Positions 14,303 to 35,207 of a DNA stretch of 64,000 nt are shown here, piece by piece (the first letter of the stretch is position 1; every line of letters begins with the position of its first letter). The notes under the pieces are model-generated. The model ran no database searches. It was not told the origin of the DNA and saw only the letters and a list, made by a program, of their open reading frames with translations. The DNA comes from Nitrospirota bacterium (GTDB taxonomy: Bacteria > Nitrospirota > UBA9217). A program made the translations under genes and the position numbers. Location of the stretch: positions 32,001 through 96,000 of the forward strand of contig CAWFSF010000003.1 of assembly GCA_963818475.1 (NCBI GenBank). The letters run 5' to 3'.

Positions 14303-16223
14303 ATGAAACATACCATTACCTTCGTCCCGGACAACGTCACTGTCACGGTCGACGACAACACCAATCTCTTCAAGGCCGTGAAATCCGCGGGGGTCTACGT
14401 GCTCTCGTCCTGCGGCGGCAAAGGCAACTGCGGCAAGTGCAAGGTCGTGGTCAGGGAAGGCACGGTCGAACCCGGCAAGTCCCGCTCGTACCTCTCTGCC
14501 GAAGAGATCGAACGCGGCTACGTGCTCGCCTGCCATTCAAAGGTCAAAAGCAGCCTGGTCGTCGAGATCCCGCAGGAATCGCGCATGCAGGCGAAGCACA
14601 AGATCGCCACCGGCGCAAAGACCGACGAGCTGCTCGATCTCATGCGCAGCGCCGGCGGGTGCCTGGAGTCCCGCATCAGCCGCGTCTATCTCGAGATCGA
14701 TCCGCCCACCATCGACGACAATATCGCCGACTACGAGCGGCTCCGGCGGGCCGTGGACAAAGAGGGCTTTGACGCCTCGCACCTCCACATGAGCCACATG
14801 ATGCTCTCCAAGCTCGCCCATGTGCTGCGCGAGGGCAACTGGAAGGTCACGGTCTCCCTGTTCAACGTCACCGCGGTGCTCGAAGTGCTCGACATCTTCC
14901 CGGGCGACGCGACGAAGACGCGCTACGGCGCTGCCGTGGACATCGGCACCACCACCGTGGTCGTCTACCTCGTGGACCTTACGAACGGCCAGATCGTCGG
15001 CACGGCCTCGACCTACAACAGCCAGGTGAAGTGCGGCGACGACGTGATCACGCGCATCGTCTATGCCACGGAGCGGAACGGGCTCAAGGAGCTCCAGGAC
15101 CTGGCCGTGGGCAACATCAACACCATGCTGGCGGACCTGGCCGAGAAGAACAGCATCCCCCCGGGCATGATCGACTACATGGTCGTGGCCGGCAACACCA
15201 CCATGATGCACCTCTTCTACGGCATCGACCCGCAGCATATCCGGGAAGAGCCCTACATCCCGACCGCCACCTTCTTCCCGATCATCCGGGGGAAAAGCGT
15301 CGGGTTCCAGTTCGACCCGCAGACCATCATCTACTCCATGCCGAACGTGGCAAGCTACGTGGGCGGCGACATCACCTCGGGCATCATGGTCTCGCAGATC
15401 CACAAGCAGGACAAGGTCTCGCTCTTCATCGACATCGGCACCAACGGCGAGATCGTGCTCGGCAACAAGGAGTGGCTCGTGACCGCGGCCTGCTCGGCAG
15501 GCCCGGCCTTCGAAGGGAGCGGCATCAAGTTCGGCATGCGCGCCATGGAAGGGGCCATCGAAGAGGTGGAGATCGACCCGAAGACGCTATGAAGTGAACT
15601 TCCGGGTCATCGGCGACGTGAAGCCCATCGGCGTCTGCGGCTCGGGCATGATCGACGCCCTGGCCGAGATGTATCTGTCGGGCGTCATCGACCAGAAGGG
15701 AAAGATCCGCGAGGAGATCGGGTCCAAGCGCATCCGGCGGGGAGAGAGCGGCCTCGAATACGTGCTGGCCTGGCGGGTGGAAAGCGCCATCAACAAGGAG
15801 ATCGTGCTGACCGAAGTGGACCTGGACAACCTGATCCGCGCCAAGGGCGCTATCTACGCCGGCTTTGCCACACTGCTTGCGCATATGGGCATGGGCTTCC
15901 ACGACATCGAGAAACTTTACATCGCCGGCGGTTTCGGCAGGTACATCGACGTGGAGCGCGCCATCACCATCGGCATGCTGCCCGACCTGCCGGTCGAGAA
16001 GTTCCAGTTCCTCGGCAACACGTCCATCATGGGCGCCTACTATGCGCTGCTCTGCGACCGCTTGCGGCACGAGGCCGAGGAGATCGCGAAGAAGATGACC
16101 TACGTGGAGCTCTCGGTCTCGCGGAGTTTCATGGACGAGTACATGTCAGCGCTGTTTTTGCCGCACACGAACCTGGATGCGTTCCCGACGGTGAAGAAGG
16201 AGCTGGAGAAGAGGAAGAAGTAA
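14303..16223 (+). CDS. ASKHA-domain 2Fe-2S protein, RACo/DUF4445 family (reductive activator of corrinoid proteins); frameshift near 15590
   Basis: CGGKGNCGKC...LAC ferredoxin domain; DIGTTT, DIGTNGE, AGPAFEG, GVCGSG and AGGFG motifs. Confidence 0.9.
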
Positions 16224-17854: not shown

Positions 17855-18304
17855 CTATTGACATAACTCAATTTGGCTTCTTAACTTCACCAATTCCTCA
17901 ACCGCAAAATAACACCTGTAAATCTTCGGATAAGCTTTTGAATCGAGTATAATGTTTTTTGTTTGTTTATCAGGGGCTGGCTGCAGTATAAAATCTGGTT
18001 GAACTGTGAGGATAAGTCGTCTGTTATCATTTATTGAGCTCATACCATTCATCCAGCCCCATTGCCCTTCAATAGTAAATTTATAAACACCATCGATTTT
18101 CCATTTTCCGTTAATCGTTCGGCCACTAAAAGAGAGTGGGCCAGAGTCAAAGGAACCATCAGATGAAAAACGATAATAAGAGGAACCATCCGTAAAAACA
18201 AATTGGCCTTCCTTTTTTATAATGTCTAGTGCATTTGGATAAGTTTCTCCATTAGCGAAATGGGGCAAAAATATGATTAAGAGTAACAACAAAAACTTTT
18301 TCAT
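17855..18304 (-). CDS. Secreted hypothetical protein (low GC)
   Basis: Signal peptide MKKFLLLLLIIFLPHFANG; ATGA overlap with the transposase stop. Confidence 0.7.
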   Translation of the reverse strand: MKKFLLLLLIIFLPHFANGETYPNALDIIKKEGQFVFTDGSSYYRFSSDGSFDSGPLSFSGRTINGKWKIDGVYKFTIEGQWGWMNGMSSINDNRRLILTVQPDFILQPAPDKQTKNIILDSKAYPKIYRCYFAVEELVKLRSQIELCQ

Positions 18305-19362
18305 TTTTCACCTTTGCTGTAGCAGGCAAGAAACTGACGACAGGCGGCAAGTTTCTCCTTGCGGCAGCGATTGCCCAGAAGGCCGTAATGTCTGATTTTC
18401 ACGAACCGGTCAGGAAGGACGTGAAGGAGGAACCGCCGGATGAACTCCTCGGCTTTCAGGGGCATGATTTTGGTTTTGTTCCCGTCCGCGTAGTCGCGCC
18501 ACCGGAAAGAGACTTCATCGTCTTCGAACTTCATAATTCGGTGATTGCTGATCGCGATCCGGTGAGTGTATCTGCCGAGATACTCCAGAACGTCCTTGGT
18601 ATGCTTGAAAGGCGTTTTGCAGTAGACGACCCAGTTCTTCTTGTACAGGTTTGAGATCAGGGCATTAAAGGCCCCCGGCGACGCAAGGTGGCTTACGGCG
18701 CCGGGGTAAATGAGTTTGTTCTCAGCACGGAACTTTTTCAGATAAGCGATAAACTTCCCTCGAAAGAGCTTCGACATCACCTTGACGTGGACGAAGAAGT
18801 CCTTCTTGCATGACTTCCATTTCCGCCCGTCACGGGACAAGCCCCCGCCGGTCACAATGTTGTGGAGATGGGGATGGTCCATGAGGTTTTGTCCCCAGGT
18901 GTGCAGAATACTGATAAACCCGATCAGCGCTCCCAGGCGCTTTGGGTTCGCCGCAAGCTCCAGCAGGGTTTCTGAAACAGCCTTGAATAGAATCCCATAG
19001 AGGGCGTTCTGATTCCGGAGCACAAGGGGATTGAGAGTGTCGGGGATGGTGAAGACGACGTGGAAGTACGGTATGGGAAGCAGGTCCTTTCCCCGGTCTT
19101 CGATCCACCGCTCTTTTTTGAGGAACTGGCACTTGGGGCAATGACGGTTTCTGCAGGAGTTGTACGAGATCACCTTTGTGCCGCAGTGCTCGCACTCATC
19201 CACATGGCCGCCTTGATCGACGGTGCGGCAGGTCTCGATCGATCGCATGGCGCGAAGACGATTTAGGGGCATGGGATGAGCGTGGCGGTAATCAGGACCG
19301 TACCGGCGAAAGATGTCGGCAACCTCGAGCTGTCGGCTATCCCGCGTGAACACGGCGGACAC
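18301..19362 (-). CDS. IS91-family (Y2 rolling-circle) transposase, apparently C-terminally truncated
   Basis: SCRNRHCPKC Zn domain, HTWG...HPHLH HUH motif, YLGRYTHR, IRHYGLL. Confidence 0.95.
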   Translation of the reverse strand: MSAVFTRDSRQLEVADIFRRYGPDYRHAHPMPLNRLRAMRSIETCRTVDQGGHVDECEHCGTKVISYNSCRNRHCPKCQFLKKERWIEDRGKDLLPIPYFHVVFTIPDTLNPLVLRNQNALYGILFKAVSETLLELAANPKRLGALIGFISILHTWGQNLMDHPHLHNIVTGGGLSRDGRKWKSCKKDFFVHVKVMSKLFRGKFIAYLKKFRAENKLIYPGAVSHLASPGAFNALISNLYKKNWVVYCKTPFKHTKDVLEYLGRYTHRIAISNHRIMKFEDDEVSFRWRDYADGNKTKIMPLKAEEFIRRFLLHVLPDRFVKIRHYGLLGNRCRKEKLAACRQFLACYSKGEK

Positions 19363-19374
19363 CGCGTGCGCTGG

Positions 19375-20232
19375 CTACGAGGTCTGTGGAGGATTTGAGA
19401 AGGGATCTGAGTCCAGCGGGCTCACAATCTTTGAAAGGTGCTTTTTGCTCACGTGAAGGTAGATGGTGGTCGTTCTTACCGACGCATGGCCCAGGAGCAG
19501 TTGAATATAGTGCAGATCAGCGCCCGCCTCCAGCAAGTGCGTGGCGAAACTGTGCCGGAGCGTGTGACAGCTTACGGGTTTCGTGATACCGGCTTTAGTT
19601 TTTGCTCGCTTAAACGCAACCTGGATATAGCTGACAGAAACGTAGTGCTCCGGATTTTCACCCGGGAAGAGCCACTGTTTGGGATGGTATTTTTTCCAGT
19701 AGTCCCGGAGCGTTTCCAAGGCAACTTGCGACAAAAGGGTGTATCGGTCCTTCTTCCCTTTGCCCTGATCCACGCGTATTAGCATGCGGCTGCTGTCGAT
19801 GTCCGTGATCTTAAGCCGGGCGGTCTCGCTCGCCCGGAGTCCTGCGGAGTATGTCACCATCAACATCACGCGCTGCTTCAGGCTGGGTGCGGCTTCGAAT
19901 AAGGACAGCACCTCGTCCCGCTCGAGAACGATGGGAAGTGTTTTGGCGCTCTTTGGATAGGGAATCCTGTCCATCACCCAACCTTTGCCAAGCGTTGTCT
20001 CGAAAAGAAACCTCAGCGCGCTGTAGGTTATCTTCAGGGTAGATTGGGATACTTTCTTGTCCCGGACGAGGTAGAGCAGGTACGCTTTGACATCTCCGTC
20101 TTCCAAAAGGTTGGGCGGCTTTTTGAAATGGCGTTCCATGTCGCGCGCCGCCCGGTGATACAATGACTGCGTCTTTGGGGCCAATCCCCGAAGCACCATG
20201 TCGCCTTGCATCTGTTCTTTGTACGTCTCCAT
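19375..20232 (-). CDS. Tyrosine recombinase associated with the IS91 transposase
   Basis: YSAGLR, GKGKKDR, HTLRHSFATHLLE, LLGH, TTIY catalytic residues; 285 aa. Confidence 0.95.
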   Translation of the reverse strand: METYKEQMQGDMVLRGLAPKTQSLYHRAARDMERHFKKPPNLLEDGDVKAYLLYLVRDKKVSQSTLKITYSALRFLFETTLGKGWVMDRIPYPKSAKTLPIVLERDEVLSLFEAAPSLKQRVMLMVTYSAGLRASETARLKITDIDSSRMLIRVDQGKGKKDRYTLLSQVALETLRDYWKKYHPKQWLFPGENPEHYVSVSYIQVAFKRAKTKAGITKPVSCHTLRHSFATHLLEAGADLHYIQLLLGHASVRTTTIYLHVSKKHLSKIVSPLDSDPFSNPPQTS

Positions 20233-20592
20233 TGCACAATCTCCTTCCGCTGAATAGAAATTCCAACGGCATGACGCCGCTGGTGTTGCGAAAGAAGATT
20301 GTAAAATGACTGGGATTGAGTTGCAAGATTTTGGGGAAGTAATTTCGAATGAGACTCGTGCGATGGGATTACAGCGAAAAGCAGCGGAAAGTGAAAAGCA
20401 CCGCCGCGTAGCGGCTTAGTTCAACAAGTTATTGACTATCCCCTTGTTTTTAGGTCTTTACTATGGGGGATAGTAAAGCACGGATTTCCGTTCTTTACCA
20501 GTTTAGCAATGAACATGCCAAAGCTCTCGAATTAGTATGCATGACTATATGCTTGATCTATGTCGATGTCAACGAAACCGATGGGGTAATTT

Positions 20593-22002
20593 AGTCAACC
20601 CAAAGTAGAAATGTACCTACTCTTACCAAGATAGAAATGTCCGCTTTAGGAAGCAATTGGAAATTGTACATTTGCTCTGCGGAGTCTCTTCCATGGATGA
20701 TCTGATGGTTGATACCGACTTGTCGGTTTCTTATTGACTGCCGGTGTTTTAGGGTTTTCTTTCGCTGGCCGTGTTTTGATCTCCCGATATGTTAATTCCA
20801 AGCCCCTGTGAGTGATATGCAGAGATCCATCGAGTCGTTCTTCCACTGCGACCTTTTGAGCTTTATAGCGTCTTTGATCTGGTACAGTTTGCCATTATAC
20901 GCAATGGTGAAATCGTTCCGTAGCGTACGCTCCTCTCGAATGCAGAAGATCTTGTCGAGTTCCCTTATGGATAGCGCGCGTTGGTGTACATCGGCTGCAG
21001 AAACGGGTTTTACCTTGAATTTCGCATTGTATATTGGATGATACTTTATCAGGAATTCGTTTGCCTGCACAACACTGTTTACCCTGGCAAGCCTCATCTC
21101 TTTAACCAATCGATCCTGGAGCGTTCGAAAACTTCTTTCTATCCTGCCTTTTGCCTGGGGTGAATTCGCATGGATGACCGTTACTCCGAGTTCGGTTAGA
21201 CTCCTTTCGAACTGGCTCATGGGTTTTCTATCTTCCAACTCATCCTCGATGCTCTGCTTGGCATTGGATTTATACGTTGAGTGCTTGTCCAAATAGACAC
21301 TCTGTGGAATGCCGTAGCGCTTGATATACCGCTTGAAGCTATCCATGGCTGGCATGGTCCCCTCATAATCATAAAAGCGCCCATACACCGTTCCTGTGGC
21401 ATCATCGATATATCCCATTAATACGCTCTCAGGACCCCGGCCTTCGAACCAGGCATGATGGGAGCCATCCATCTGGAGCATTTCACCAAAATGATGCTTC
21501 CTCTCGCGCCATTGCCGGTGCTTTCTACCCTTGCGCTTCTCATAAGGGATGCTTTCCTGATTAAGCCATAGACGGAGGGTTTCGTCGCTTAGCTTGATTT
21601 CATGAACATCAAGAAGCTTTTCGCAGGCAAAGGTGGGGCCAAAATCACTGTATTTCTCCCGATACAGCTTGAGTGCCTTGTCTTTGTACCTTCTGAGGGA
21701 ATCGACGATTCGAGGTTTTGCCGCGGGATCGGTGACTGATGCCGTCGTCTCCCTCCTTCCGTACTCGTTTGAGTATCCGTCGAATCTGCCTGCTGCTCAA
21801 GCCTACAAGTTCAGCAGCTGTCTTCTGCGTGATCCTTTTATCCAATGCTTGGTGGATAATGTGCAGTCTTTTTGTTTCTCTCCTGCTCATAGTGATCATG
21901 TCCATTTCTGTCACAGTACCCTCCAATTACATCAGGGTATTGTAACTTAGAATAGGACATTTCTACTTTGGGAGAATAGGACATTATCATTTTGGGAGTA
22001 CA
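20593..22002 (-). mobile_element. IS1202/ISNCY-type insertion sequence with 20-bp target-site duplication
   Basis: Ends carry reiterated CCCAAAGTAGAAATGTCC motifs; CGAAACCGATGGGGTAATTT at both 20573-20592 and 22003-22022. Confidence 0.9.
20646..21926 (-). pseudogene. ISNCY/IS1202-family DDE transposase, split by frameshifts
   Basis: HTH fragment (21645-21926), QMDGSHHAWFE...PQAKGRIER core (20792-21481), C-terminal fragment (20646-20846). Confidence 0.85.
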
Positions 22003-22187: not shown

Positions 22188-23087
22188 TTAATAGCTGTAT
22201 CTTAGTCCCAGGCTGACGATATTATCGGTAGTGTTCGTGCCCGGCACGTTAGAATCGCTTGCCTGGTGGCCGTACTGCGCGTCCACAAACCATTTTTCCA
22301 GGAAATTATGTTCCAGACCGACTGATACCGTGTTGGCGGTCACCTTGAAATCCGAAGGCTCGTCATAGCTCCGAGCGAGGTAACTATACCCGAGAAGGAC
22401 CGTCGTTTTCGGCAGGACTACATACCCGGCCCAGATGCTGACCGCGTTGCCGCTGTAGCTGAAAAGAGCGGAATCCGCATGGTCCTTTTCGTATACGTAA
22501 CCTTCCTTCAACCAGAACAACGCACTCAACTTCTCCTTAAGCGTGAGGGACGCACCGTAAGCGGTACTGTCGCGCTGTGAATCGCCGAATCGTTTGAGCA
22601 GTCCGTTGACCGCGACCCTGGCTGTCACCATCTCGCCGAACCCTTTATTGAGCCCGGCGCTCAATCCGCCGATCGTGGAATTGAACTCGGTAAAGCTGCT
22701 GTAGGACGTGCGTTCCGCGCTCCCGGTCAGGAACAGGGACGTGGCCTCTGCGATCATCCTGGATGCTCCCAGGTCCGCGAAGAGCACGACCGATGTATCA
22801 CTGTTCGACGTCGAACTCGATCCGGTATAGGAAGGCCCCATCGGTCCCATTACCCCGGCAACACCCATCATCGATCCCCCGGTAGCACCGGGCATGCCTG
22901 CGTAACCGCCGCGCTTGTCGGACAGAAGTCCCACAACGTTATCTTCGTAGACCCCTTTGATCGCTGCATTATAGTAGATTTCCGCGTGCACGGCAGGCGT
23001 GAAAAGAACGTTAAGGATTACAACGAATAAAATAATTGCAAACTTTTTCGGTGATCGATGGGCTCGCATAGAGTGTTCCTCCTGCAT
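22188..23087 (-). CDS. Outer-membrane beta-barrel protein with a Met/Gly-rich loop
   Basis: Signal peptide, amphipathic strands, C-terminal LGLRYSY; loop GMPGATGGSMMGVAGVMGPMG. Confidence 0.8.
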   Translation of the reverse strand: MQEEHSMRAHRSPKKFAIILFVVILNVLFTPAVHAEIYYNAAIKGVYEDNVVGLLSDKRGGYAGMPGATGGSMMGVAGVMGPMGPSYTGSSSTSNSDTSVVLFADLGASRMIAEATSLFLTGSAERTSYSSFTEFNSTIGGLSAGLNKGFGEMVTARVAVNGLLKRFGDSQRDSTAYGASLTLKEKLSALFWLKEGYVYEKDHADSALFSYSGNAVSIWAGYVVLPKTTVLLGYSYLARSYDEPSDFKVTANTVSVGLEHNFLEKWFVDAQYGHQASDSNVPGTNTTDNIVSLGLRYSY

Positions 23088-23143
23088 TGTTCACGAATGA
23101 CATTTTTTTGGCCGAATCTGTCATAAGTATAGCAGAGCACAAT

Positions 23144-23180
23144 AAAAAAACAGGCAGCTGCAACAGCGTGCAACTGCCTC
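23144..23180 (-). terminator. Intrinsic terminator
   Basis: AGGCAGTTGCA-loop-TGCAGCTGCCT followed by T7 on the minus strand. Confidence 0.65.
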
Positions 23181-23214
23181 TTATATCACCTGTTCATGTG
23201 CACACCCTGTACTG

Positions 23215-23895
23215 CTACCGTCTCGAACCTCCCATGCCAGGCCCGGCGCCTGACCCCATTCCAGGGCCGTGGTCCATGCCCGAATCGGTGCCCATGTGGT
23301 CACGGTCGCGTGTCGTGTCCCGGTCATGCTGCATGGTTCTGTCCCGGTCCATGGTCCGCGTCGCGTTTTCCGCGGCCTTGTCAGGAGCGGTCCCGGATTT
23401 TATCTCTCCGGCGTAGGCATTCGTTGCGGCGGTGATCCTGCCGGCTTGGACCCCTTTGTTGATCCCGTTTGACATTATTTGCGACGTCTTGTCAGCCGGT
23501 GCGCCGGCTGCCACGGTCTTGCCAAAGGTGTTCGTCATCTGCACGGTTTCGCGCGCGTTGTACTTGTGCTCTAATGCATCCGCAGCGACCGCGGCCGCGT
23601 CTTTCTTCGCGCCTCCTGCTGTTTCTATGGATCTGGCGATCTCGGCAAGGTCTTTGCCTTTGATTCCCTGGTTGATGGATGCTTCAACCACGCGAAAGGC
23701 GTGCTCAACAGGCACACCCTTGTCAACGAGGCCCTGGAGCGTGGCTGTTGCCTGGGAGTGGTCTTTGGCATCAAGCTTCTTTTCCGTGGACTGCTTATCG
23801 ATATTTGCCCTTGCCTCATCCAGGGTAAGCGCAAACGTCGTTGCTCCGAAGATCAGAATGCTTCCCATCGCAATTACCATCAATATTTTTTTCAT
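23215..23895 (-). CDS. Exported helical-repeat protein with Met/His/Gly-rich tail
   Basis: Signal peptide; repeated (K/A)GVP motifs; tail DHMGTDSGMDHGPGMGSGAGPGMGG. Confidence 0.75.
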   Translation of the reverse strand: MKKILMVIAMGSILIFGATTFALTLDEARANIDKQSTEKKLDAKDHSQATATLQGLVDKGVPVEHAFRVVEASINQGIKGKDLAEIARSIETAGGAKKDAAAVAADALEHKYNARETVQMTNTFGKTVAAGAPADKTSQIMSNGINKGVQAGRITAATNAYAGEIKSGTAPDKAAENATRTMDRDRTMQHDRDTTRDRDHMGTDSGMDHGPGMGSGAGPGMGGSRR

Positions 23896-23924
23896 GTCGT
23901 TCTCCTTAAAGGTACAGTCTCTTC

Positions 23925-24842
23925 TTACCGCTTTCCGCCCATGCCGCCCATTCCTCCCATACCGCCTGAATTCGGACTGTGCATGGATCCTGCTCCCGGT
24001 CTTTCCTGCATGTCATGCATCATCTCCCCCCGCTCCATGCGGGAGTTCATGTTGGAAACGACCTCGTTCATCGGGCGATTCTTCCTGAGCTCGCCCACCA
24101 TGTAGCGCTCCATGGTCTCCAGGTCCCGTTCGGAATAGCCCTTGTCCACGGCCGTATGCACCATCTTCGCGGACTGTTCGGCAGTCATGCCGCTGCCCAC
24201 AAAGGTGGTCATCGTATCCACTGCCCGGTTAAACAGTCCGATCGATCCTTTCCGGTCCTTCACTTTTTCGCCCGTCTTCATAACAGCATCCTGCGGGATC
24301 GATTTTTCCAAAGCTCTCGCCACCGCTTCAACTGCATCATCCGATCCTCTTGCACCTGTTGGTCGTATGCCCCCTGTCTCGAGCTTGCTCACGATCGGCC
24401 TGGCTGCTGAGAGGTTGTCGGAAAGCCGCTGGGTAGCACCAACGATCTTCTCTGCAGGCACGCCTTTGGCGAGCCCCTGTTCCACCCGGTCAAGGACGGG
24501 TCGTACCGGCAGGTTCTGTTCCTTTGCCCTGGTTGCGGTTTCAAGGAATTTTTCGACATGCCGGCTCTCTATGCCCTGTTCCAGCCCGCGGGTGATGATG
24601 ATGGAGACATCCTCGGCAGGAACGCCCGCTGCCACTGCCCGGTCGGCTTTTGTCAGGATACCGGACTTCGATTCCCTCGAGAGCTGGGACTTTTCGACTG
24701 AAACCCGAGCGGCTTCGAGATGCTTTGATCCCGCCTCTTCCGCCCTGGCGCATGGCGGTGCTGTCAGAATTGCTGCTGTAGTCAGCAGCAGAGCAGTAAG
24801 GATCTTGAGAACGGCCTTCGTCATTTGTTTCTTCCTTTTCAT
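23925..24842 (-). CDS. Exported helical-repeat protein with Met/Gly-rich tail
   Basis: Signal peptide; GVPAE repeats; tail MMHDMQ...GGMGGMGGMGG. Confidence 0.75.
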   Translation of the reverse strand: MKRKKQMTKAVLKILTALLLTTAAILTAPPCARAEEAGSKHLEAARVSVEKSQLSRESKSGILTKADRAVAAGVPAEDVSIIITRGLEQGIESRHVEKFLETATRAKEQNLPVRPVLDRVEQGLAKGVPAEKIVGATQRLSDNLSAARPIVSKLETGGIRPTGARGSDDAVEAVARALEKSIPQDAVMKTGEKVKDRKGSIGLFNRAVDTMTTFVGSGMTAEQSAKMVHTAVDKGYSERDLETMERYMVGELRKNRPMNEVVSNMNSRMERGEMMHDMQERPGAGSMHSPNSGGMGGMGGMGGKR

Positions 24843-25498
24843 GTCCTGACCCTCATCACGGCATTTCTATTTCCGAAGCCATCGTCCCGGTAAGTTTCCG
24901 CATTCGGGTCGGTCACCCATGCCTTTCCGTCCACAACGAACATATAGCTGTGTTCCCCCGGTTGCAAGGGTATGCTGATGGTCCAAATTCCGTTTTCCTG
25001 TTTCGTGAGCACGTGTGTGTCGGTCTTCCACTTATTGAACGTGCCTGCGACCGCGACGTGGTGAGCTTCAGGCGCATGCAGGTTCATGGTCACCGTCACG
25101 GCCTGTTCCTGCTGCCGGACCACCGCGGTTTCTATTGGTACGTTCCGGGTGCGAACAGCAAGCGTGAAAACAAGAGCGAAGAGCACCGCAGCCGCAATTG
25201 CTGTGGCCATGTTCCACCTGAGCACCCGGCCCTTGAGCACGAAATCCCGCATGCGCCTTCCCATGGTCGCTTTTCTCGGTTGCAGCCGCCGCATGACCTC
25301 TGCGGTAAAGAAAGGGGGCGCTGCTATCCGCTCGCTCGTCTCAACAGCCCGGACCACCTCCCTCAGGCTGTCGAATTCTTCTTGCAACACAGGATTTGCC
25401 GTGACCTGATCGATCAGTGCCTTCTTTTCATCCGGTCCGAGGTCCCCGTCCAGCAGCCGGTGAATGATTTCCCTATCGAGTTCTTTTTCATCTTTCAT
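24839..25498 (-). CDS. Anti-sigma factor with C-terminal CBM48/AMPK glycogen-binding-like domain
   Basis: IIHRLLDGDL anti-sigma domain, one TM helix, VAVAGTFNKW...GIWTISIPLQPGEHSYMFVVDGKAWVTDP...DDGFG. Confidence 0.85.
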   Translation of the reverse strand: MKDEKELDREIIHRLLDGDLGPDEKKALIDQVTANPVLQEEFDSLREVVRAVETSERIAAPPFFTAEVMRRLQPRKATMGRRMRDFVLKGRVLRWNMATAIAAAVLFALVFTLAVRTRNVPIETAVVRQQEQAVTVTMNLHAPEAHHVAVAGTFNKWKTDTHVLTKQENGIWTISIPLQPGEHSYMFVVDGKAWVTDPNAETYRDDGFGNRNAVMRVRT

Positions 25499-26055
25499 AA
25501 CGTGACCCCCATCCCCTCCAGCAGCTTCCTGAGCATCTCTCTTCCCCGGTGCGCCCGTACTTTGAGAGCGCTGACGGAGACCCCCAGGGAATCGGCGATC
25601 TCCTGAAAATCGAGCCCCTCGATATGCTTCAGGATGATCACCTCGCGGTAGTCAGGGGGCAGCCCGTTCAGCGCTAGCTGGACCGCATCCCCGCTCTGGC
25701 GGCAGGAAGCGGCCTGCTCCGGCGAGCGGTCCGGCCCTGCGACATATTCGCAGATATCATCCACCGGCACGGTCTCCCTGGTGGCCCTGAAATGATCGCG
25801 GCACTTGTTGACCACGATCCGGTACAGCCAGGAAGAGAACCGGGAATTGAACTTAAAATCCCCGAGAGCGTTGTAAGCGGCAATGAAGCTTTCCTGCGCC
25901 ATATCTTTGGCCGCATCCCCGTCTCCCACCATCCGGAAAGCGATATTGTATGCCATGTTCTTATAGGAGTCCATCAGCACGGCATATTGGTCGCTATCGC
26001 CGGCCAGGACCTTCCGGATGATCGCGTATTCTTCTTTCACTCTGTCTGCACTCAT
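25495..26055 (-). CDS. ECF RNA polymerase sigma factor
   Basis: AKDMAQESF, FSSWLYRIVVN and region 4 EIADSLGVSVSALKVRAHRGR; likely start ATG at 26055. Confidence 0.95.
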   Translation of the reverse strand: MSADRVKEEYAIIRKVLAGDSDQYAVLMDSYKNMAYNIAFRMVGDGDAAKDMAQESFIAAYNALGDFKFNSRFSSWLYRIVVNKCRDHFRATRETVPVDDICEYVAGPDRSPEQAASCRQSGDAVQLALNGLPPDYREVIILKHIEGLDFQEIADSLGVSVSALKVRAHRGREMLRKLLEGMGVTL

Positions 26056-26065
26056 GTAGCACCTA

Positions 26066-26093
26066 TTAGACGATGGTCGCGCGAAAAGGTTAC
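26066..26093 (-). promoter_or_regulatory. ECF promoter (autoregulatory)
   Basis: GTAACCTT-N13-CGTCTAA. Confidence 0.75.
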
Positions 26094-26458
26094 TGCCCGG
26101 AAAGTTCTTCTCCCACGAGAAGAACGGAATTCTTCCTGCCGAACCCGTCGTCAACTTCGGGCACAGCGGGGTCCGGCTGCCAGTCTTTTTCGTTTATGAC
26201 GAAGAGGTACTCGTACCGCCCCTCGGCAAGCGGGAGAACTATGCTCCACAAGCCGTTTTTATCCGGTCCGGACAAGCGGTCTTTCCGGGTGTCCCAGGCA
26301 TTGAAACTCCCGGCAATGGCGACGCTTGTTGCCTTCGGCGCATACAAGGTGAACGAAACTCCTTCTTTCGTCATCTCCGGACCCGGATGCTTCGGTACGC
26401 AGGCCGCGAGCAGCGAGCAAAACAACATTGCCGGAATTATGATCAGGCATGGTTTCAT
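26090..26458 (-). CDS. Lipoprotein with CBM48/AMPK glycogen-binding-like domain
   Basis: Lipobox LAAC; VAIAGSFNAW...GRYEYLFVINEKDWQPDP...DDGFG. Confidence 0.85.
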   Translation of the reverse strand: MKPCLIIIPAMLFCSLLAACVPKHPGPEMTKEGVSFTLYAPKATSVAIAGSFNAWDTRKDRLSGPDKNGLWSIVLPLAEGRYEYLFVINEKDWQPDPAVPEVDDGFGRKNSVLLVGEELSGQ

Positions 26459-26562
26459 CGTTTTTTGAAATTTACTCTACTGCTATGATAGCGCCCATGC
26501 CTTGAGGTCGCAAGGCTAATTCATCTTTTGATGACGTTTAAGAAAAACCGGTGGACAAAACA

Positions 26563-26591
26563 GCGGCAGCCGGACCTTTATCCGGCTGCCG
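26563..26591 (-). terminator. Probable terminator hairpin
   Basis: CGGCAGCCGGA-loop-TCCGGCTGCCG followed by a T-rich tract on the minus strand. Confidence 0.6.
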
Positions 26592-26642
26592 TACACTTAC
26601 GTGAATTGAACAGGATACTCCCGGGAACAGCGCAAGGCCGCC

Positions 26643-27557
26643 TCAGATCGTCCCATTGGTCGTGGTCAGCCGGCTGATGAGCGCCTGCATGTCGGTGGCC
26701 GTCAGCCCTGATTGATTCATGCCTGAGCCCAAAAACGCTGTCATGGCATTCCCCAACCCGCTGGTACCTGCCGTCGACTGCATCATCGTCCCGCCGCCCA
26801 TCATGCTCATTCCGCCGCCCATCGTGATCTGCGTGCTCCCCATCATGCCGTTCATGGTACCGTCGGTGGCATCGTCCATCATTGCGGTCACTATGCCGGA
26901 AGAATCCGGCATTCCGAGGGTCTGGGCTAACTGCGTCATGGCAGCAACGGTCATTCCATAATTTCTCATGTCCTGAGTCGCCCCGGCTCCCGATCCGGCA
27001 ACGAGCGGATTCATCGGCGTCGTGTGGAGAATATCATTGACCATGAAATAATGACCTACTGCCGTGTTCGCGGCTTCACTGTTCGTTGCGGTCATGCCGC
27101 TTGCCATGGTGCTTGCCATTGCCTGGGCCATGGAAGTAAGCGGGGTCACCTGAACTCCGGTCATGGTGGCATTGCTCGCCATCATTGGAATAAGGGCCGT
27201 CATCACGTCATTCGCTCCCATGGGCATCACCGAACCTGTTGCCTCGTCCGTATAGGTCCCGCCGCTCATCAGCAGCATGACCGGACCTGTATAATTATCG
27301 ATGTTCATGCTGAAATTGCCCTGCGTGTCCGTCGTTGCGCTGGCCAGCATAACGCCTTTGGCGCCGTTGTTCACGGCATATGCCATCACCGTACCGCCGC
27401 TCACCGGGCCCTTGACTGCCGTCCCGCTGATCATCCCGGAGCCGGTCGTACCCGGGGTAGTCACACTGCCGCCGCCCCCGCCGCCGCACCCAAAGAGCAT
27501 GAACAGAGAACCGATCATAAGAACGAACACTGCCTGGCTTTTTTTGAATATTTTCAT
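26643..27557 (-). CDS. Methionine-rich lipoprotein
   Basis: Lipobox LFGC-GGGGGG; about 39 Met in about 304 aa by manual count. Confidence 0.8.
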   Translation of the reverse strand: MKIFKKSQAVFVLMIGSLFMLFGCGGGGGGSVTTPGTTGSGMISGTAVKGPVSGGTVMAYAVNNGAKGVMLASATTDTQGNFSMNIDNYTGPVMLLMSGGTYTDEATGSVMPMGANDVMTALIPMMASNATMTGVQVTPLTSMAQAMASTMASGMTATNSEAANTAVGHYFMVNDILHTTPMNPLVAGSGAGATQDMRNYGMTVAAMTQLAQTLGMPDSSGIVTAMMDDATDGTMNGMMGSTQITMGGGMSMMGGGTMMQSTAGTSGLGNAMTAFLGSGMNQSGLTATDMQALISRLTTTNGTI

Positions 27558-27629
27558 TTCAGACCTCCTCAAGTCTATACCCGAATTGTTATTGCATGAT
27601 GGCAATGATCTTTTTGCATCATTCCGAGA

Positions 27630-27657
27630 TTAGACGAAAGCAATCGAGAAAGGTTAC
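27630..27657 (-). promoter_or_regulatory. ECF promoter of the Met-rich lipoprotein
   Basis: GTAACCTT-N13-CGTCTAA, boxes identical to those at 26066-26093. Confidence 0.75.
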
Positions 27658-27703
27658 AGCCAGGACTCTTTTTTTTCCGAACGCCGTTCTAGCCATGCTC
27701 CGG

Positions 27704-27732
27704 GTAACTTTTTCATCGTTTTTTCCGTCTTA
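27704..27732 (+). promoter_or_regulatory. Divergent ECF promoter
   Basis: GTAACTTT-N14-CGTCTTA upstream of ORF 27768. Confidence 0.6.
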
Positions 27733-27767
27733 CGGTAAGATCAATAACACTTGAGGTTTGGAACACT

Positions 27768-27998
27768 ATGAAAAGAAGGATTATCGTAATACTTTTTGCC
27801 GCCGCTCTATCAGTCCCAAGCTATGACTGCCGGCTCACGAGTCTGGATGCGTTACCGACGGTGAAGAAGCAGCTGGAAGCGAGAGGGAGAACAGAGGGGA
27901 ACTGCGAATTACACCTACAATTCTGCACAGCCGATATTGTAACTAGAGCATGCCAATTGTATCCTGCACATGAACGACGAGTTGAGCCCACGCCGTAG
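27768..27998 (+). pseudogene. Truncated exported protein fused to a copy of the RACo gene 3' end
   Basis: Signal peptide MKRRIIVILFAAAL, then TSLDALPTVKKQLE, similar to the RACo C-terminus TNLDAFPTVKKELE. Confidence 0.6.
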
Positions 27999-28026
27999 AG
28001 CTCAGGACTCGAATGACTCGTTATAC
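27969..28026 (-). other. attC site
   Basis: GTATAAC...GTTCATG, 58 bp; nearly identical to the site at 28823-28881; overlaps the upstream stop codon. Confidence 0.8.
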
Positions 28027-28809
28027 CTTTATCGATTCAAGTTCTTTACGAGCGTATTCGAGAATAAGATTATCTCGTGCTACGCCATTCAACTCCGCAA
28101 AACTGCCGTCAGGGCTATTACCTTCCCACATGTAACACCATGCCATCAAGCCATCAGGATGGGAAAGAGGGTCGATAACTTTTAGATGTATCAAGTGAAT
28201 TCCTTGATCAGGGCTGATCGCTCCATTAACAATCGCTTTGCAAATATAGTGAAAATAATCCATTATCATTCCATCTTGGCTTAGCTGAGGAATCGATAAC
28301 TCGTGAAGAGTGGCTTCAAAATACTGAGGGATGTCTTCACGATCAGCAGGGAGGTTTAGCCCAGCAAGAATTCTTAGAGAAGGAGAATCAAGATTATATT
28401 CGAGAGCTTTGACCGCCCACTCGGTAAACTCTTGATCAGAAGCATCCTGTGCCCACCGTCTGATCAATAAAATCTTTAAGCCATCTTTGATACTAGTGGG
28501 TAACTTGACCTCGTCTTGCCATTTCTTAATATCAGTTTTCTCTTTATCCAGAAGTTCGTTCAGGTACTGTTCGGTCCGTATTCTGTTTATAGGTTGTTCT
28601 TTAAGAAATTCTTCCCGGATTTTCGCATTACTATGAAATGGCCGTCTTAGTGGATGGAATCTCATGTATAAAGCCCATGCAAAACCAAGAATCAGTACAG
28701 ATCCAAAATATATAGCGTGATAAGCAAGACTATTCGGAAACACCACCTGTCCTAATTTCCAGGCTATCAATACAGAAAGACATATATATAGAGTTAATCG
28801 TTTAGGCAT
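28021..28809 (-). CDS. Cassette gene, membrane-anchored hypothetical protein
   Basis: Low GC, flanked by attC sites. Confidence 0.75.
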   Translation of the reverse strand: MPKRLTLYICLSVLIAWKLGQVVFPNSLAYHAIYFGSVLILGFAWALYMRFHPLRRPFHSNAKIREEFLKEQPINRIRTEQYLNELLDKEKTDIKKWQDEVKLPTSIKDGLKILLIRRWAQDASDQEFTEWAVKALEYNLDSPSLRILAGLNLPADREDIPQYFEATLHELSIPQLSQDGMIMDYFHYICKAIVNGAISPDQGIHLIHLKVIDPLSHPDGLMAWCYMWEGNSPDGSFAELNGVARDNLILEYARKELESIKV

Positions 28810-28885: not shown

Positions 28886-29302
28886 CTATGCTTCGCCGTT
28901 GATAAATACATCAAAGAATTTGTTTGCAATAAGATCGTATTTAAGTTGAAAGAAGCAACCACCGCCATCGTGGACAAGGACAAAATCTTTGCTTAAATTT
29001 ACGCCTTTGGGGTTGTGAAGACTGCAAAATGCATTGATGTAAACAAATTTACGTCCCTGTTCTTCTTGTCCTTGATACTGAAGACGGTAGGTGTTCCATT
29101 TTTTGAGCGATCTTCCAAAGACCTTCTCTTGCGATTTCATATATGGCTCAAGATGTATTTTAATTGTTGAAAGAATTTTGTCTGAGGGGTTCCACGTTCC
29201 GCCGTCAACCTTTGTCCAAGAATTTTCTTCGGCATTAGCGAGCCTGAGCAACAGCACTGGTATTATAAAAACCAGATATTTAGTTCTGCTTGAGATAATC
29301 AT
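28886..29302 (-). CDS. Cassette gene, secreted hypothetical protein
   Basis: Signal peptide; YRLQYQG...YINAFC...DGGGCFF; flanked by attC sites. Confidence 0.75.
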   Translation of the reverse strand: MIISSRTKYLVFIIPVLLLRLANAEENSWTKVDGGTWNPSDKILSTIKIHLEPYMKSQEKVFGRSLKKWNTYRLQYQGQEEQGRKFVYINAFCSLHNPKGVNLSKDFVLVHDGGGCFFQLKYDLIANKFFDVFINGEA

Positions 29303-31602: not shown

Positions 31603-32349
31603 CTATGCTGTCCCTTGATTTTTATGTTTATTGAGATTCATTTCAATCCAGAGGTGATGAAGCGCGAGTCTCTTGCCTTTTACGCTTCCGACCCTGCTAT
31701 GAACCGACTTAGAAATTGCAACTCCGTTGAGCGAATCTTCTTCAAAGGTATCTAGCTTCTCTCCATCGCTCCAATGGCAGGTATCTTCAAATACTCCTTG
31801 CGCAAACTTTGCGATCCAATCATTAATCTGGCTATGCCATTGGCTTAACGAGCATTTTTGAACATAGCCGACCAATGCGACGATATTATGATCACCTCCA
31901 TGCAGTCCGAGTTTGAATCGTTGGATCCCCCCGCTAACTTTGTCTTTTCCACCAGAAACATATTCTTTTTCTCGGTCGAGGGAAGGAGCGGGAAGACGTT
32001 TCCCTTCAATGACGAGGATAGTGTCGTATATGGTGTGAAGCCTAGCATCTATGGTTATCGGCTCAACCGGAGATACAGAGATGTCAACACTTCGTCGACC
32101 GGATTGATTTTCTTGATGGTCGAAACGCACCATCGGAAATTCACTTCGCGCATGTGCATCGAGATATTTGACGAGCTGTAGATTTAATTGATTCTCAGAC
32201 TGTGCGTCCCTTCGGTTTGGATCGTCTCTCCATGCTGGTAGTTGTCGCACAATATAAGCGATCGTTTTTGAGACAAGTGTGCCTTTTTGAATACCGGAAG
32301 TAATACCGCCTTTGGTTTGCGCTGCAGCCGTTTTTTCGCTCATATTCAA
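31603..32349 (-). CDS. Putative PD-(D/E)XK nuclease-fold protein
   Basis: E...RRSVDI...ILVIEGKRL; ATGA overlap with the methyltransferase. Confidence 0.6.
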   Translation of the reverse strand: MNMSEKTAAAQTKGGITSGIQKGTLVSKTIAYIVRQLPAWRDDPNRRDAQSENQLNLQLVKYLDAHARSEFPMVRFDHQENQSGRRSVDISVSPVEPITIDARLHTIYDTILVIEGKRLPAPSLDREKEYVSGGKDKVSGGIQRFKLGLHGGDHNIVALVGYVQKCSLSQWHSQINDWIAKFAQGVFEDTCHWSDGEKLDTFEEDSLNGVAISKSVHSRVGSVKGKRLALHHLWIEMNLNKHKNQGTA

Positions 32350-35207
32350 AAGCCCTGCTCGCGCAAATCTAGAAGCGATTCATCAGCATCCCGTATAGCG
32401 GTCGAAGGAATCCAATACCGTAGCCGGTCTGGCTTCACTATCAAAAATACATTTTGAGAATAGAACCGCAATACCCGTATGGTACGAAGAAATTTATACT
32501 GCTCTTCGTGATAGATAAGCTTTCGCAAATCAGCCTCAATCCCTTTTTCGATCCAGGTCAGATTTGGCCGCTCTCCGAAATAGAATGGCTGACAAATGAG
32601 ACCATCGAGATGAATGGTCGCCGCTGCTTTCAGATTATCGTAAACGCTGCCAAGCATTCGCATGAACAGATTGGCGTAGGCGTTGAGATCGCTTGGAGTC
32701 GCTGCATTTTTCAAGAGCGCGGAATTCTGCCCGAGACGCACATAATCAGCCATATATTTAAGGACATCCACTCGTAGTGTTTCTTCCCAGAAACAGAATG
32801 TCAACTCGCTCGGGTCTTCAGGAAACGGCAGCACATCTATATCTTGCTTCAGAATTGCTGTCGCCTTGCCTATTAGCGCTTGCGACCCATTTAGCATGCA
32901 CGTGAACCGATACATGTCTCGGTTGTGTGCAATAGTGCTATAAATCGAACGGAGATCTGATTCCTGTGAGCGAGGCGCATGGATTCCTACGATTTTGTCT
33001 CGATATGCTATAGAACTCTTAGACCAAAAAGCAATGGGAAGCGACTCTGACTCTTTGATCATTACGAGCGGCGGAGTAAACCGCCTTTCATTTCGAGGAC
33101 TTTCGAATTTTGTTTCATTTACAACACCAATACTGCTTTCATCTATGCCGTCTATTGTAAGCGCTTCCGTAGGCAGGTATTTTTTACCTGTTAAAAAGGG
33201 AGCCTCTGTTTTACCGCTTCCTACAATGAAGCCCTCCCCATAGTCCCAATCCTTTTGCTTGGCGATGAATTCTTCTAATGTGCGCATGCGTCGTAGACGT
33301 TGCGAGAGGTCAAGCAGTCTTCCACCGCCGAGCAGGTTAACGCGCCACACATATGGGTCTGCCACTGCTTGTGCCTGGGTCACGTGATGTTGATCGTAAT
33401 GATCGATCTCAAAGCAAATTCGCTCATGCGCGCTATTCGTCCGGCGGAATGTCAGATGATTAATCCAGTGGTTCTCGTGTGGGGTTTTTGCTTGAACGAA
33501 CATTGCCACTGTTTTGGGGTCCGCCGCATCATATAAATTGCGTATCGAACTGAAATCGAGAATGGCATGCACCTGAAATTTTCGATGGATAGCGGCTCGA
33601 AACGCTTGTGCGTGACGATTATAAAGAATACCAGCGGGTTGAATCAGGCATAGCCGACCGTTTGGCCTAAGCAGGTTCAGCGTTTCCTCCAGAAATAGAT
33701 AGGCTGCTTGTTTGTCCGGCAACGATCCGCGTGTGCTGTCCCGCTGTTTCGCAAGCTTATCAATCTTCTTACCGGCTTCCGACAACTTGGATTCAAAGGG
33801 CGGATTGCCAACAACGATGTCGAATCCGCCCGTCGGGAGAGAAGGCTTGCCTTGTTGCGTATCGTCGCATAAGGTAAAGAAATCAGCTTCAAGCAGGTTG
33901 GATTCGTGGAGAGGATCGAATTTCAGTTCGCGCCAAATAACAGCAGGCTGCAAAGCATCGCAAACCGCGAGGCTCAGGCTGAAAGCCGTAAGATGAACGG
34001 CATTTGGGTCTAGTTCGACTCCATAAATACTTCTCTTCAAAATTCTCTTGAGAGTCTGAACGTCGGGTTTTCTCCACCCATGGCGGCTGCGCCAGACATT
34101 GACAAGTCTCTTGAATGCCCCAACGAGGAAAACACCAGAACCACACGCCGAGTCCAGAACCCGTTCATCGCCCGAAAGTTTATCGTACGGCATGGCATAG
34201 TCAAGCAGCAATGCGGCTAGGAAAGGCGGGGTATAAACTGCACCATGGCCACCATTGACGAAGCGCTGATAAAGGTGACTGATGACCTCGACGGGTAGAT
34301 GTGCAAAGGAGAACCGTTTCCAAAGATAGCGCTGTCTGCTGAGTGTTTTCGCCTCTACGAGTTCAGCAAAGCGAAGAAGCGCTTTTTTTGTAATTTTTTG
34401 CCGACCCTCAACTGGCAAGGAAAAAATATCACCGTTGAATTTTTCTTCCAGTCTAGCAAGCAGACGTAACACTTCCTCAGGTTCGCCTCCTTGCAGTACG
34501 TCAAAAAAGCCTCGAGCTCCCTTTCGATAGGCCCCGAACCAGCCGTCTCCCGGAAATACTCGCCGGTCCTCAAGATATTTGATCAACACCAGCAAAAAAA
34601 GCAGGCGTCGCAGAATCGGATGGTTTTCTCCTTCGAGCTCCTCATCTGCTTCCACTATCGCCTGAATCAGTTCTTGATGGGCAACTTTTGTGTGGTCCGC
34701 CAGCTTGCGGTTATCCGGATCTTCCCAGAAGGTTCCATCGGCAAGCGGAAAAATTGTAAATTTCCAGAGGTTGTCCGATATTTCGCCCGCTGTTTTTAGT
34801 GCGTCGATTTCAAAGGTTTTAGCCGGGATATAGCAGTATTCTTCATTTTTTGATTTCCAAAAGTCCGGGCCTCTTACACACGATAAAATATCAACTCTGC
34901 TCTGCCAGGCAACGTAAATCAACGGAGCCAGTCCGTATAACCAGACCTTCCAGTGGAGCTCAGCCAATTTTTTTTCATCGAGTCGGTGGTTTGAGTTGTC
35001 AACAATATAAGCCGCGATTTGGGACGACCGGCCGTCGGTAAACCGCCGAAAATAAATATAATCGACATGATCAAACGCCTTTGCCTCATTAACGGCCGCA
35101 CGCTCGTCAACGGCTAAATTGGCTCCTGCATTGTCACGCAGAGAGACGAGGCCGGGTGCTGATTTTCCCGCACTGATAAAATCGATTGTTTCAAGCTGTG
35201 TCGGCAT
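32346..35207 (-). CDS. N6-adenine DNA methyltransferase (Type IIG/Eco57I-like architecture)
   Basis: GAVYTPP, VLDSACGSGVFL (motif I), VGNPPF (motif IV), C-terminal TRD-like region. Confidence 0.9.
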   Translation of the reverse strand: MPTQLETIDFISAGKSAPGLVSLRDNAGANLAVDERAAVNEAKAFDHVDYIYFRRFTDGRSSQIAAYIVDNSNHRLDEKKLAELHWKVWLYGLAPLIYVAWQSRVDILSCVRGPDFWKSKNEEYCYIPAKTFEIDALKTAGEISDNLWKFTIFPLADGTFWEDPDNRKLADHTKVAHQELIQAIVEADEELEGENHPILRRLLFLLVLIKYLEDRRVFPGDGWFGAYRKGARGFFDVLQGGEPEEVLRLLARLEEKFNGDIFSLPVEGRQKITKKALLRFAELVEAKTLSRQRYLWKRFSFAHLPVEVISHLYQRFVNGGHGAVYTPPFLAALLLDYAMPYDKLSGDERVLDSACGSGVFLVGAFKRLVNVWRSRHGWRKPDVQTLKRILKRSIYGVELDPNAVHLTAFSLSLAVCDALQPAVIWRELKFDPLHESNLLEADFFTLCDDTQQGKPSLPTGGFDIVVGNPPFESKLSEAGKKIDKLAKQRDSTRGSLPDKQAAYLFLEETLNLLRPNGRLCLIQPAGILYNRHAQAFRAAIHRKFQVHAILDFSSIRNLYDAADPKTVAMFVQAKTPHENHWINHLTFRRTNSAHERICFEIDHYDQHHVTQAQAVADPYVWRVNLLGGGRLLDLSQRLRRMRTLEEFIAKQKDWDYGEGFIVGSGKTEAPFLTGKKYLPTEALTIDGIDESSIGVVNETKFESPRNERRFTPPLVMIKESESLPIAFWSKSSIAYRDKIVGIHAPRSQESDLRSIYSTIAHNRDMYRFTCMLNGSQALIGKATAILKQDIDVLPFPEDPSELTFCFWEETLRVDVLKYMADYVRLGQNSALLKNAATPSDLNAYANLFMRMLGSVYDNLKAAATIHLDGLICQPFYFGERPNLTWIEKGIEADLRKLIYHEEQYKFLRTIRVLRFYSQNVFLIVKPDRLRYWIPSTAIRDADESLLDLREQGF

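Follow-up and report, generated by a model that had tools for sequence, protein, structure and literature searches.

ECF (extracytoplasmic function) sigma factors are among the commonest signalling devices of bacteria, and most of their groups have no known signal or output. A stretch of 64,000 nucleotides from an uncultured Nitrospirota bacterium of the lineage UBA9217 (contig CAWFSF010000003.1, positions 32,001 to 96,000; hereafter the window) carries such a sigma factor next to an anti-sigma factor with a CBM48-type domain, and it raises the question of which genes this pair controls and what the circuit may serve. On the minus strand, between 22188 and 27605, the open reading frame (ORF) call of the window gives seven co-oriented ORFs, numbered g7 to g1 here. 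An earlier note on this DNA (the original prediction) had described them as a Met-rich lipoprotein (g1), a CBM48-like lipoprotein (g2), an ECF sigma factor (g3), a membrane anti-sigma factor (g4), two exported helical-repeat proteins (g5 and g6) and an outer-membrane barrel (g7); all seven are in place as described. The cluster is a real, conserved ECF module known from sequence alone, with a closed regulon and an unusually well defined promoter, and it probably works as an autoregulated sigma/anti-sigma system of envelope signalling with a very small local regulon and Met-rich periplasmic outputs.

It can be seen that the window holds three copies of an ECF-type promoter of the form GTAACCTTT-N12-CGTCTAAT. 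One of them, P(sigma) (26065 to 26093, minus strand), lies before g3, with its −35 element overlapping the stop codon of g2 and its −10 element about 13 nt 5' of the sigma start; by its predicted position it places g3-g4-g5-g6 under autoregulation. A second copy, P(g1) (27629 to 27658, minus strand), stands before g1. The third (27702 to 27735, plus strand) is divergent and precedes the remnant of a gene of a type called c13 here (27768 to 27998, plus strand). The same motif recurs in related loci, which were collected by a pattern scan with one genome per species (195 relatives, 80 loci kept). Immediately 5' of the sigma gene it was present in 32 of the 35 close loci (L001-L038) with enough upstream DNA, and before the divergent c13 in all four loci concerned (L001, L002, L003, L023). 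Before g1 it was present in 10 of the 11 loci that bear this gene; five loci share TGTAACCTTT-N12-CGTCTAAT there, a shape typical of an ECF promoter. A position weight matrix was built from 57 instances of the motif (training minimum 22.7 bits) and used to scan all 4.66 Mb of the genome. Only the three sites of the cluster were found above the training range (P(g1), 34.2 bits; P(sigma), 33.6 bits; the divergent copy, 31.1 bits). A fourth site, C6:266341 (20.8 bits), scored below the training minimum, has no ORF of at least 150 aa within 600 nt downstream and was taken as a chance match. Since all strong promoter sites genome-wide fall in the cluster, the regulon is self-contained, as the original prediction had proposed. 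The genes behind the same promoter in other genomes again encode small exported proteins; one of them, L031:6540-6752 (plus strand), encodes a 70-aa exported Cys/Met-rich peptide with a mature part beginning MGTCKCTMGTCTGSGTM.

The transcription map comprises about four units, not one operon: a sigma-70-type promoter serves g2 with read-through into the sigma operon, P(sigma) serves g3-g4-g5-g6, the other two ECF promoters serve g1 and the c13 remnant, and g7 stands alone. The candidate sigma-70-type promoter of g2 (26485 to 26513, minus strand; TTGCGA-17-TATCAT) is kept in L001, L003 and L004, and elsewhere TGGTATAAT-type extended −10 boxes are found at the equivalent position. A terminator hairpin 3' of g1 (26564 to 26591, minus strand; 12 pairs, 9 of them G-C) is kept in L001-L004. 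Between g6 and g7 lies a terminator-like hairpin of 11 pairs with a T run (23152 to 23179, minus strand), and L003 and L009 have equivalent hairpins 5' of g7; g7 follows this terminator, and no ECF motif was found 5' of it in the window. Among sequencing runs, none with RNA was listed for this stretch, and the best-matching DNA runs have at most 0.14 of its sampled words in common with it. ECF control of Met-rich exported proteins, which had been claimed earlier, agrees with the promoter prediction for g1, g5 and g6, all of which stand behind ECF promoters. The CBM48 lipoprotein g2 does not belong to the ECF-driven set: it sits upstream of the ECF promoter and has a sigma-70-type promoter of its own. 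It would therefore be an input or regulatory part of the system, not an output.

The product of g3 (25495 to 26055, minus strand) contains regions 2 and 4 only (Pfam; Sigma70_r2, 6.5e-17; Sigma70_r4_2, 6.9e-17) and scores 102.7 bits against TIGR02937, sigma70-ECF (cut-off 42.9), which assigns it to the ECF (group IV) sigma factors. Its nearest solved relative is SigW of Bacillus subtilis (5wuq_A, E=5e-30), but it stays under the cut-offs of the SigW equivalogs NF007223 and TIGR02948 (137.4 bits versus 209 and 131 versus 243.1, respectively). The adjoining gene g4 (24839 to 25498, minus strand) encodes an N-terminal anti-sigma domain, followed by a single transmembrane helix (approximately residues 95-115) and, on the periplasmic side, by a CBM48/AMPK1_CBM domain (residues 132-219). 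The Pfam and NCBIfam matches and the single hydrophobic span thus bear out the membrane anti-sigma factor with a C-terminal CBM48-like domain that had been predicted. There are 368 homologues of g4, and PF02922 and PF16561 are both present in all of the 120 listed. Over residues 10-78, a profile built from 18 anti-sigma homologues aligns with the RsiW chain of 5wuq (E=1.4e-9), and g4 matches NF052375 (antisigma) below its cut-off. Zinc anti-sigma (ZAS) factors are defined by the anti-sigma domain fold together with an H-x3-C-x2-C motif; in the alignment of the 18 homologues the His of the zinc motif is nearly invariant, and there is no conserved Cys pair or CxxC. Because g3 falls below the SigW equivalog cut-offs and g4 lacks the Cys pair, the pair is regarded as a relative of SigW/RsiW, not an orthologue, and g4 not as a zinc anti-sigma factor.

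By these comparisons the cytoplasmic half of the module is SigW/RsiW-like. The two proteins of B. subtilis give the best solved match both for g3 and for the cytoplasmic domain of g4, and the SigW promoter, TGAAAC-N16-CGTA, is similar in style to that of the cluster. The cluster differs in that its anti-sigma factor has no CxxC and carries a CBM48 ectodomain, in that no PrsW was found in the genome, and in its regulon, which is tiny and of different content.

What the outer half of the module may recognize is a separate matter. At the C-terminus of g4, AMPK1_CBM is matched with E=1.2e-13 (Pfam; 51.5 bits, cut-off 26.8) and CBM_48 with E=1.4e-11 (45 bits, cut-off 22.4). The gene g2 (26090 to 26458, minus strand) encodes a stand-alone lipoprotein of the CBM48 fold, a paralogue of the g4 sensor domain, with E=1.3e-12 for CBM_48 (48.3 bits) and E=2.2e-10 for AMPK1_CBM (41 bits) at the same cut-offs; the Cys of its N-terminal lipobox LAAC (LLAAC) is kept in at least 90% of 22 aligned homologues. 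In the AMPK beta CBM, glycogen is bound by W100, K126 and W133, and mutation of K126 abolishes glycogen binding (PMC6274970). Alignment with the AMPK beta-2 CBM equates W100 and W133 with W157 and W194 of g4, which are invariant in the 18 anti-sigma homologues; in the family of g2 (22 lipoproteins) W55 is invariant and W93 nearly so. At the position of K126, however, g4 has Met and g2 has Leu, so that glucan binding is uncertain. Taken together, these residues suggest that binding of alpha-glucan by the CBM48 domains of g2 and g4 is possible, not established. The best PDB sequence matches include CBM48-type modules of ferulic acid esterases. In the related loci inspected, neither the surroundings of the cluster nor the genes behind the promoter include a conserved glycoside hydrolase, glucan synthase or sugar transporter. 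A prediction of the complex between g4 (residues 125-219) and g2 (residues 21-122), made with alignments for both and without controls, scored 0.00 in two runs and weighs neither way on binding.

On the output side, g1 (26643 to 27557, minus strand) encodes a lipoprotein (lipobox LFGC) with 12.5% Met and a Met-rich C-terminal half. Of the 3530 genomic ORFs that reach 150 aa (median Met content 2.39%, 99th percentile 5.92%), just one is richer in Met, and g1-type ORFs of the related loci contain 8.8-14.2% Met in 13 of 13 cases. The family is large (1015 proteins at E<=1e-3); its Met positions are strongly conserved, and many aligned Met columns are invariant. The AlphaFold2 (AF2) model of g1 is poor (pLDDT 49.6) and confident only for an N-terminal beta-sandwich; the resemblance of this N-terminus to CarboxypepD_reg is weak (6 of 27 family members). 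The most Met-rich ORF of the genome, C6:2237104-2237817 (minus strand; 237 aa, 13.1% Met), has a signal peptide and a mature part that starts with GGMMG; it is distant from the cluster and has no ECF promoter match.

In relatives, c13 encodes an exported protein whose core reads FFYxGYWYRP and whose tail reads GHGMGMG, a type of tail that is also found in c5-type proteins; the copy in the window keeps the signal peptide only. The remnant adjoins a low-GC stretch at about 27.8-29.4 kb (GC 0.41-0.44; genome 0.55), which looks like an insertion that truncated this ECF target gene. Two genes without family matches, 28021-28809 and 28886-29302, lie in the stretch where relatives hold the rest of c13. 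On another contig of the genome, two neighbouring paralogues of the c13 family are found at C5:421642-424394, with 35-45% identity to the c13 of relatives.

The gene g5 (23925 to 24842, minus strand), whose start codon overlaps the stop of g4, and the shorter g6 (23215 to 23895, minus strand) encode exported helical-repeat proteins that fall into one BLAST cluster and are thus paralogues. Both have tails rich in Gly, Met and His; that of g5 ends GGMGGMGGMGGKR and that of g6 DHMGTDSGMDHGPGMGSGAGPGMGGSRR. Neither these two proteins nor g1 match any named family of Pfam or NCBIfam. The database contains 169 relatives of g5, and the 120 that were listed are all unnamed and without a Pfam domain. 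The AF2 model of g5 (pLDDT 87.4) consists of 13 helices arranged as a two-helix repeat. Foldseek returned no PDB match for it at E<=0.001, a wide search with VIA-align returned designed repeats only (best Z 10.3, under the level that exceeds a common helical arrangement), and a fold search in the Atlas returned unnamed clusters only. Pfam gave only weak T2SSF matches, in 6 of 28 members (best E 1.5e-4), which were judged to reflect the helical repeats. The tail, taken as the last 45 residues, is Gly-rich and disordered, and 34 of the 49 homologues have 4 or more Met in it.

The last gene of the cluster, g7 (22188 to 23087, minus strand), is a candidate outer-membrane beta-barrel with a signal peptide and a C-terminus ending in LRYSY; its true start is likely the ATG at 23069, behind GGAGG. 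Its matches to barrel families are weak: BBP2_2 with 2e-5 (24.0 bits, cut-off 23.7; C-terminal stretch only) and OMP_b-brl with 4e-5 (24.1 bits, cut-off 28.7). Near the N-terminus, 5 Met lie inside one 40-residue Gly/Met stretch. Of the barrel with a Met-rich loop that had been predicted, the barrel is a candidate and the Met stretch is present in g7 itself; the stretch does not extend to the family, where it was found in 5 of 25 homologues, and control by the sigma factor is not supported. Taken together, low-complexity segments rich in Met occur in several exported proteins of the regulon that are unrelated to each other, but they are not universal to the conserved core.

The closest loci are found in Nitrospirota metagenome-assembled genomes (MAGs), at 70-78% identity. 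Synteny was counted in 54 loci with a near-full-length anti-sigma match, with only those loci counted for each feature that have enough flanking DNA. The sigma gene is adjacent to the anti-sigma gene in 50 of 51 loci. A stand-alone CBM48 gene lies on either side of the pair in 37 of 44 (upstream of sigma in 29/47, downstream of the anti-sigma gene in 11/50), the helical protein was detected by tblastn in 37 of 47, to which clustering adds a few, and a g7-type barrel is present in 24 of the 39 loci with enough downstream DNA. The conserved core thus consists of sigma factor, CBM48 anti-sigma factor, CBM48 lipoprotein and helical-repeat protein. It extends across Nitrospirota and appears in rearranged order in MAGs of Vicinamibacteria and Gemmatimonadota; the CBM48 gene is downstream in records labelled Nitrospira, Vicinamibacteria and Gemmatimonadota. 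Loci of the Nitrospira type, such as L027, L038 and L041-L043, stem from records with a Nitrospira label. Of 301 sampled genomes of the phylum, 66 gave a match to the helical protein (36 of 63 in the family of the window's genome and 23 of 50 in a second family). Nothing beyond the core is widely conserved, the commonest further neighbour being a Ca-type P-type ATPase in 9 loci. This ATPase, PMR1/SERCA-like and under the equivalog cut-offs, is found in L008, L011, L014, L019, L020, L021, L030, L032 and L033; in L020 and L021 it follows the g1 gene in the same orientation. In L041-L047 (Nitrospira and Vicinamibacteria records) a Phenol_MetA_deg-type barrel with a weak FapF-like match (E=2.5e-6) lies directly 5' of sigma and replaces the downstream g7-type barrel.

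Several known systems resemble parts of the cluster. The Met/His-rich proteins of copper and silver handling (the Met-rich regions of CopA/PcoA, CusF, SilE/PcoE) are similar in composition and motif style to the tails of g6 and c13 (MDH, GHGM, MGGM) and to g1. The cluster proteins, however, have no Pfam or NCBIfam match to these families, there are no copper-resistance genes nearby, and the cluster is under an ECF sigma factor, not under CusRS or CueR.

As to the anti-sigma type, the closest description is that of group ECF278 in the catalogue of Casas-Pastor et al. (2021, NAR 49:986, PMC7826278), a group known by computation only from Desulfovibrio, Syntrophobacter and Chloracidobacterium. 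At +1 it has a single-pass anti-sigma factor with a periplasmic AMPK glycogen-recognition domain, for which a glycogen signal was proposed, and its subgroup s1 has a promoter with GTGAC at −35 and GTATA at −10 (PMC7826278). The cluster has the same arrangement, a sigma factor with an anti-sigma factor at +1 that contains one transmembrane helix and a periplasmic AMPK1_CBM domain. When compared with the published description, it differs in its host, a Nitrospirota bacterium, and in its promoter, GTAACCTTT/CGTCTAAT; the published motif GTGAC...GTATA has 0 matches in the window. In the description used for this comparison, no lipoprotein, helical protein or Met-rich target is named. Related loci of other phyla have TGTGAC −35 boxes, and one of them (L080) a GTATC −10, which makes the promoters of the cluster and of ECF278 look like variants of one theme. 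A literature search found, in the library covered, no experimental study of ECF278 or of an ECF module with a CBM48/AMPK1_CBM anti-sigma factor. The earlier statement that no described system has this combination holds only in part, since the catalogue entry on ECF278 already records the anti-sigma type computationally.

As to function, the closest analogue is the response of Azospira suillum to reactive chlorine, in which the ECF pair SigF/NrsF commands a small regulon around the periplasmic Met-rich protein MrpX with YedY (MsrP) (PMC4436054). The cluster likewise has a Met-rich periplasmic protein, g1, under predicted ECF control. According to that description it differs in that its regulon has no methionine sulfoxide reductase and in its type of anti-sigma factor, and its Met-rich proteins are unrelated to MrpX, larger and partly folded (a beta-sandwich in g1, helical repeats in g5/g6). 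With SigI/RsgI of Clostridium thermocellum, as described, it shares an anti-sigma factor with a CBM-type ectodomain as sensor; SigI, however, is not an ECF factor, and that system has a Gram-positive host, cellulosomal enzymes as targets and other CBM families.

How might such a module work? At rest, the sigma-70-type promoter of g2 would give basal transcription, and read-through would supply some g3 and g4. The single-pass g4 would sequester the SigW-like g3 through its RsiW-like cytoplasmic domain and display its CBM48-fold domain in the periplasm near the inner membrane. An extracytoplasmic event would then act on this ectodomain, probably together with the paralogous lipoprotein g2, and g4 would lose its activity. 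Regulated proteolysis is the most likely route, with the RseP-type site-2 protease of the genome, in which a Peptidase_M50 gene is present, making the final cut. Free sigma factor would start transcription at the GTAACCTTT-N12-CGTCTAAT promoters of its own operon (g3, g4, g5, g6) and of g1, and in relatives also that of c13 with its Gly/Met/His tail, so that the response would combine positive autoregulation from P(sigma) with induction of g5, g6 and g1. To judge from their composition, the outputs would most likely form a periplasmic sponge for a thioether-seeking agent. A role in binding soft metal ions such as Cu(I)/Ag(I) is put forward tentatively, a holdase or structural role is doubtful, a role against oxidants more doubtful still, and the rest of the odds falls to something else.

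A number of observations weigh against the autoregulated envelope system with Met-rich outputs proposed here. No PrsW-type site-1 protease was found in the genome (91% complete), and no protease gene is conserved near the cluster in the related loci inspected. Nor do these loci have a conserved gene for copper resistance, msrPQ or thiol redox near the cluster; Oxidored_molyb is encoded twice in the genome, at C3:135.6 kb and C3:263.4 kb, both away from the cluster (C3:54-60 kb) and without a promoter match. The replacement of K126 by Met or Leu counts here as well. The outputs themselves are uneven. Of the seven genes, sigma, anti-sigma, CBM48 gene and helical protein are widely kept, but g1 was found in only 10 of 40 loci; g7 is syntenic yet lacks an ECF promoter in the window. 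The Met tails ascribed earlier to the helical proteins hold for the majority of homologues, but in 15 of 49 the tail is charged and has at most 3 Met. The universal job of the helical protein thus cannot rest on Met.

There are three other explanations. Induced by the ECF factor, the Met-rich exported proteins could act as sacrificial sinks that take up reactive species of oxygen or chlorine in the periplasm. Such an oxidant defence would match the ECF-controlled small regulon around a Met-rich periplasmic protein of Melnyk et al. 2015 (PMC4436054), and it would account for the extreme Met content of g1 and for Met-rich tails in several unrelated exported families. Against this, neither the cluster nor its surroundings in the loci inspected encode a methionine sulfoxide reductase, both Oxidored_molyb genes are elsewhere without the promoter, and g4, which spans the membrane once and carries a CBM48 domain, does not resemble NrsF. 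In g1, many Met positions are not just frequent but invariant, and the His residues of the MDH/GHGM tails and the Cys/Met peptide of L031 fit metal ligation better. It seems unlikely that the module is of the MrpX type. Alternatively, and as the strong form of the original prediction, both CBM48 domains could be true alpha-glucan sensors that report an extracytoplasmic glucan, as RsgI does in C. thermocellum, where the CBMs borne by RsgI form a known precedent. The Pfam matches above cut-off in g2 and g4, the conservation of the two Trp positions and the glycogen signal proposed by the authors of the catalogue for ECF278 (PMC7826278) point in this direction. Against it stand the missing Lys, the ferulic acid esterase modules among the best PDB matches, outputs unrelated to carbohydrate use, and the lack of any carbohydrate-active or sugar-transport gene conserved nearby or behind the promoter. 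We consider a glucan sensor rather doubtful.

Another explanation concerns the helical protein and the lipoprotein, which could be partners of the anti-sigma factor (an RseB-like protector or a feedback inhibitor) in a general envelope-stress response, the Met tails being a lineage-specific decoration or a holdase-like flexible tail. Across phyla, no other gene accompanies the sigma and anti-sigma genes as constantly as that of the helical protein, and the g4 stop codon overlaps the start of this gene. The helical core is conserved as the tail composition shifts from Gly/Met to charged repeats, and g2 has a separate housekeeping-type promoter. Yet any contact among these proteins would be hypothetical, the helical protein has no known relatives, and it is duplicated (g5, g6) and placed behind the ECF promoter like an output; such a partnership is somewhat doubtful. 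As roles of the outputs, we would favour, in this order, a soft-metal sponge, an oxidant sink and a holdase or regulatory role of the helical protein, the first because of the MDH, GHGM and MGGM tails and the Cys/Met peptide of L031. A bolder version of the proposed system must be called speculative. In it, the paired CBM48-fold domains of the anti-sigma factor and the lipoprotein would sense the condition of some part of the envelope, either a glycan or the helical-repeat protein. A dedicated 'methionine sponge' of unrelated secreted Gly/Met/His proteins, built around a helical-repeat fold that lacks natural relatives of known structure, would buffer soft metals or oxidants in the periplasm, a new envelope defence in anaerobic Nitrospirota, some Acidobacteriota and Gemmatimonadota.

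The outputs are unusual in that unrelated secreted proteins converge on Gly/Met-rich segments, and one of them belongs to a helical-repeat family without a known relative. Identifying their ligands would add a new mechanism of periplasmic protection for subsurface bacteria that are hard to culture, and it would give the first function for a periplasmic CBM48-type sensor. Because the sensor parts, the precise promoter and the three-promoter regulon can be read from the sequence, the circuit is directly testable in a heterologous host. The sigma/promoter pair could also become a new orthogonal switch for synthetic biology.

Other genes of the window deserve brief mention. Directly downstream of the cluster, mobile elements occupy 18301-21926: an IS91-type Y2 transposase (Y2_Tnp + Zn_Tnp_IS91) adjoins a gene of the phage-integrase family, and beside it lies an insertion sequence (IS) remnant split into separate ORFs, with a helix-turn-helix (HTH) part at 21645-21926 and a weak DDE/rve part at 20792-21481. 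On one side of the cluster, 14303-15592 encodes a RACo-type reductive activator of corrinoid proteins (Fer2 + RACo domains); on the other, 32346-35207 encodes a 953-aa Eco57I/MmeI-like N6 DNA methylase, a candidate type IIG-like restriction-modification enzyme.

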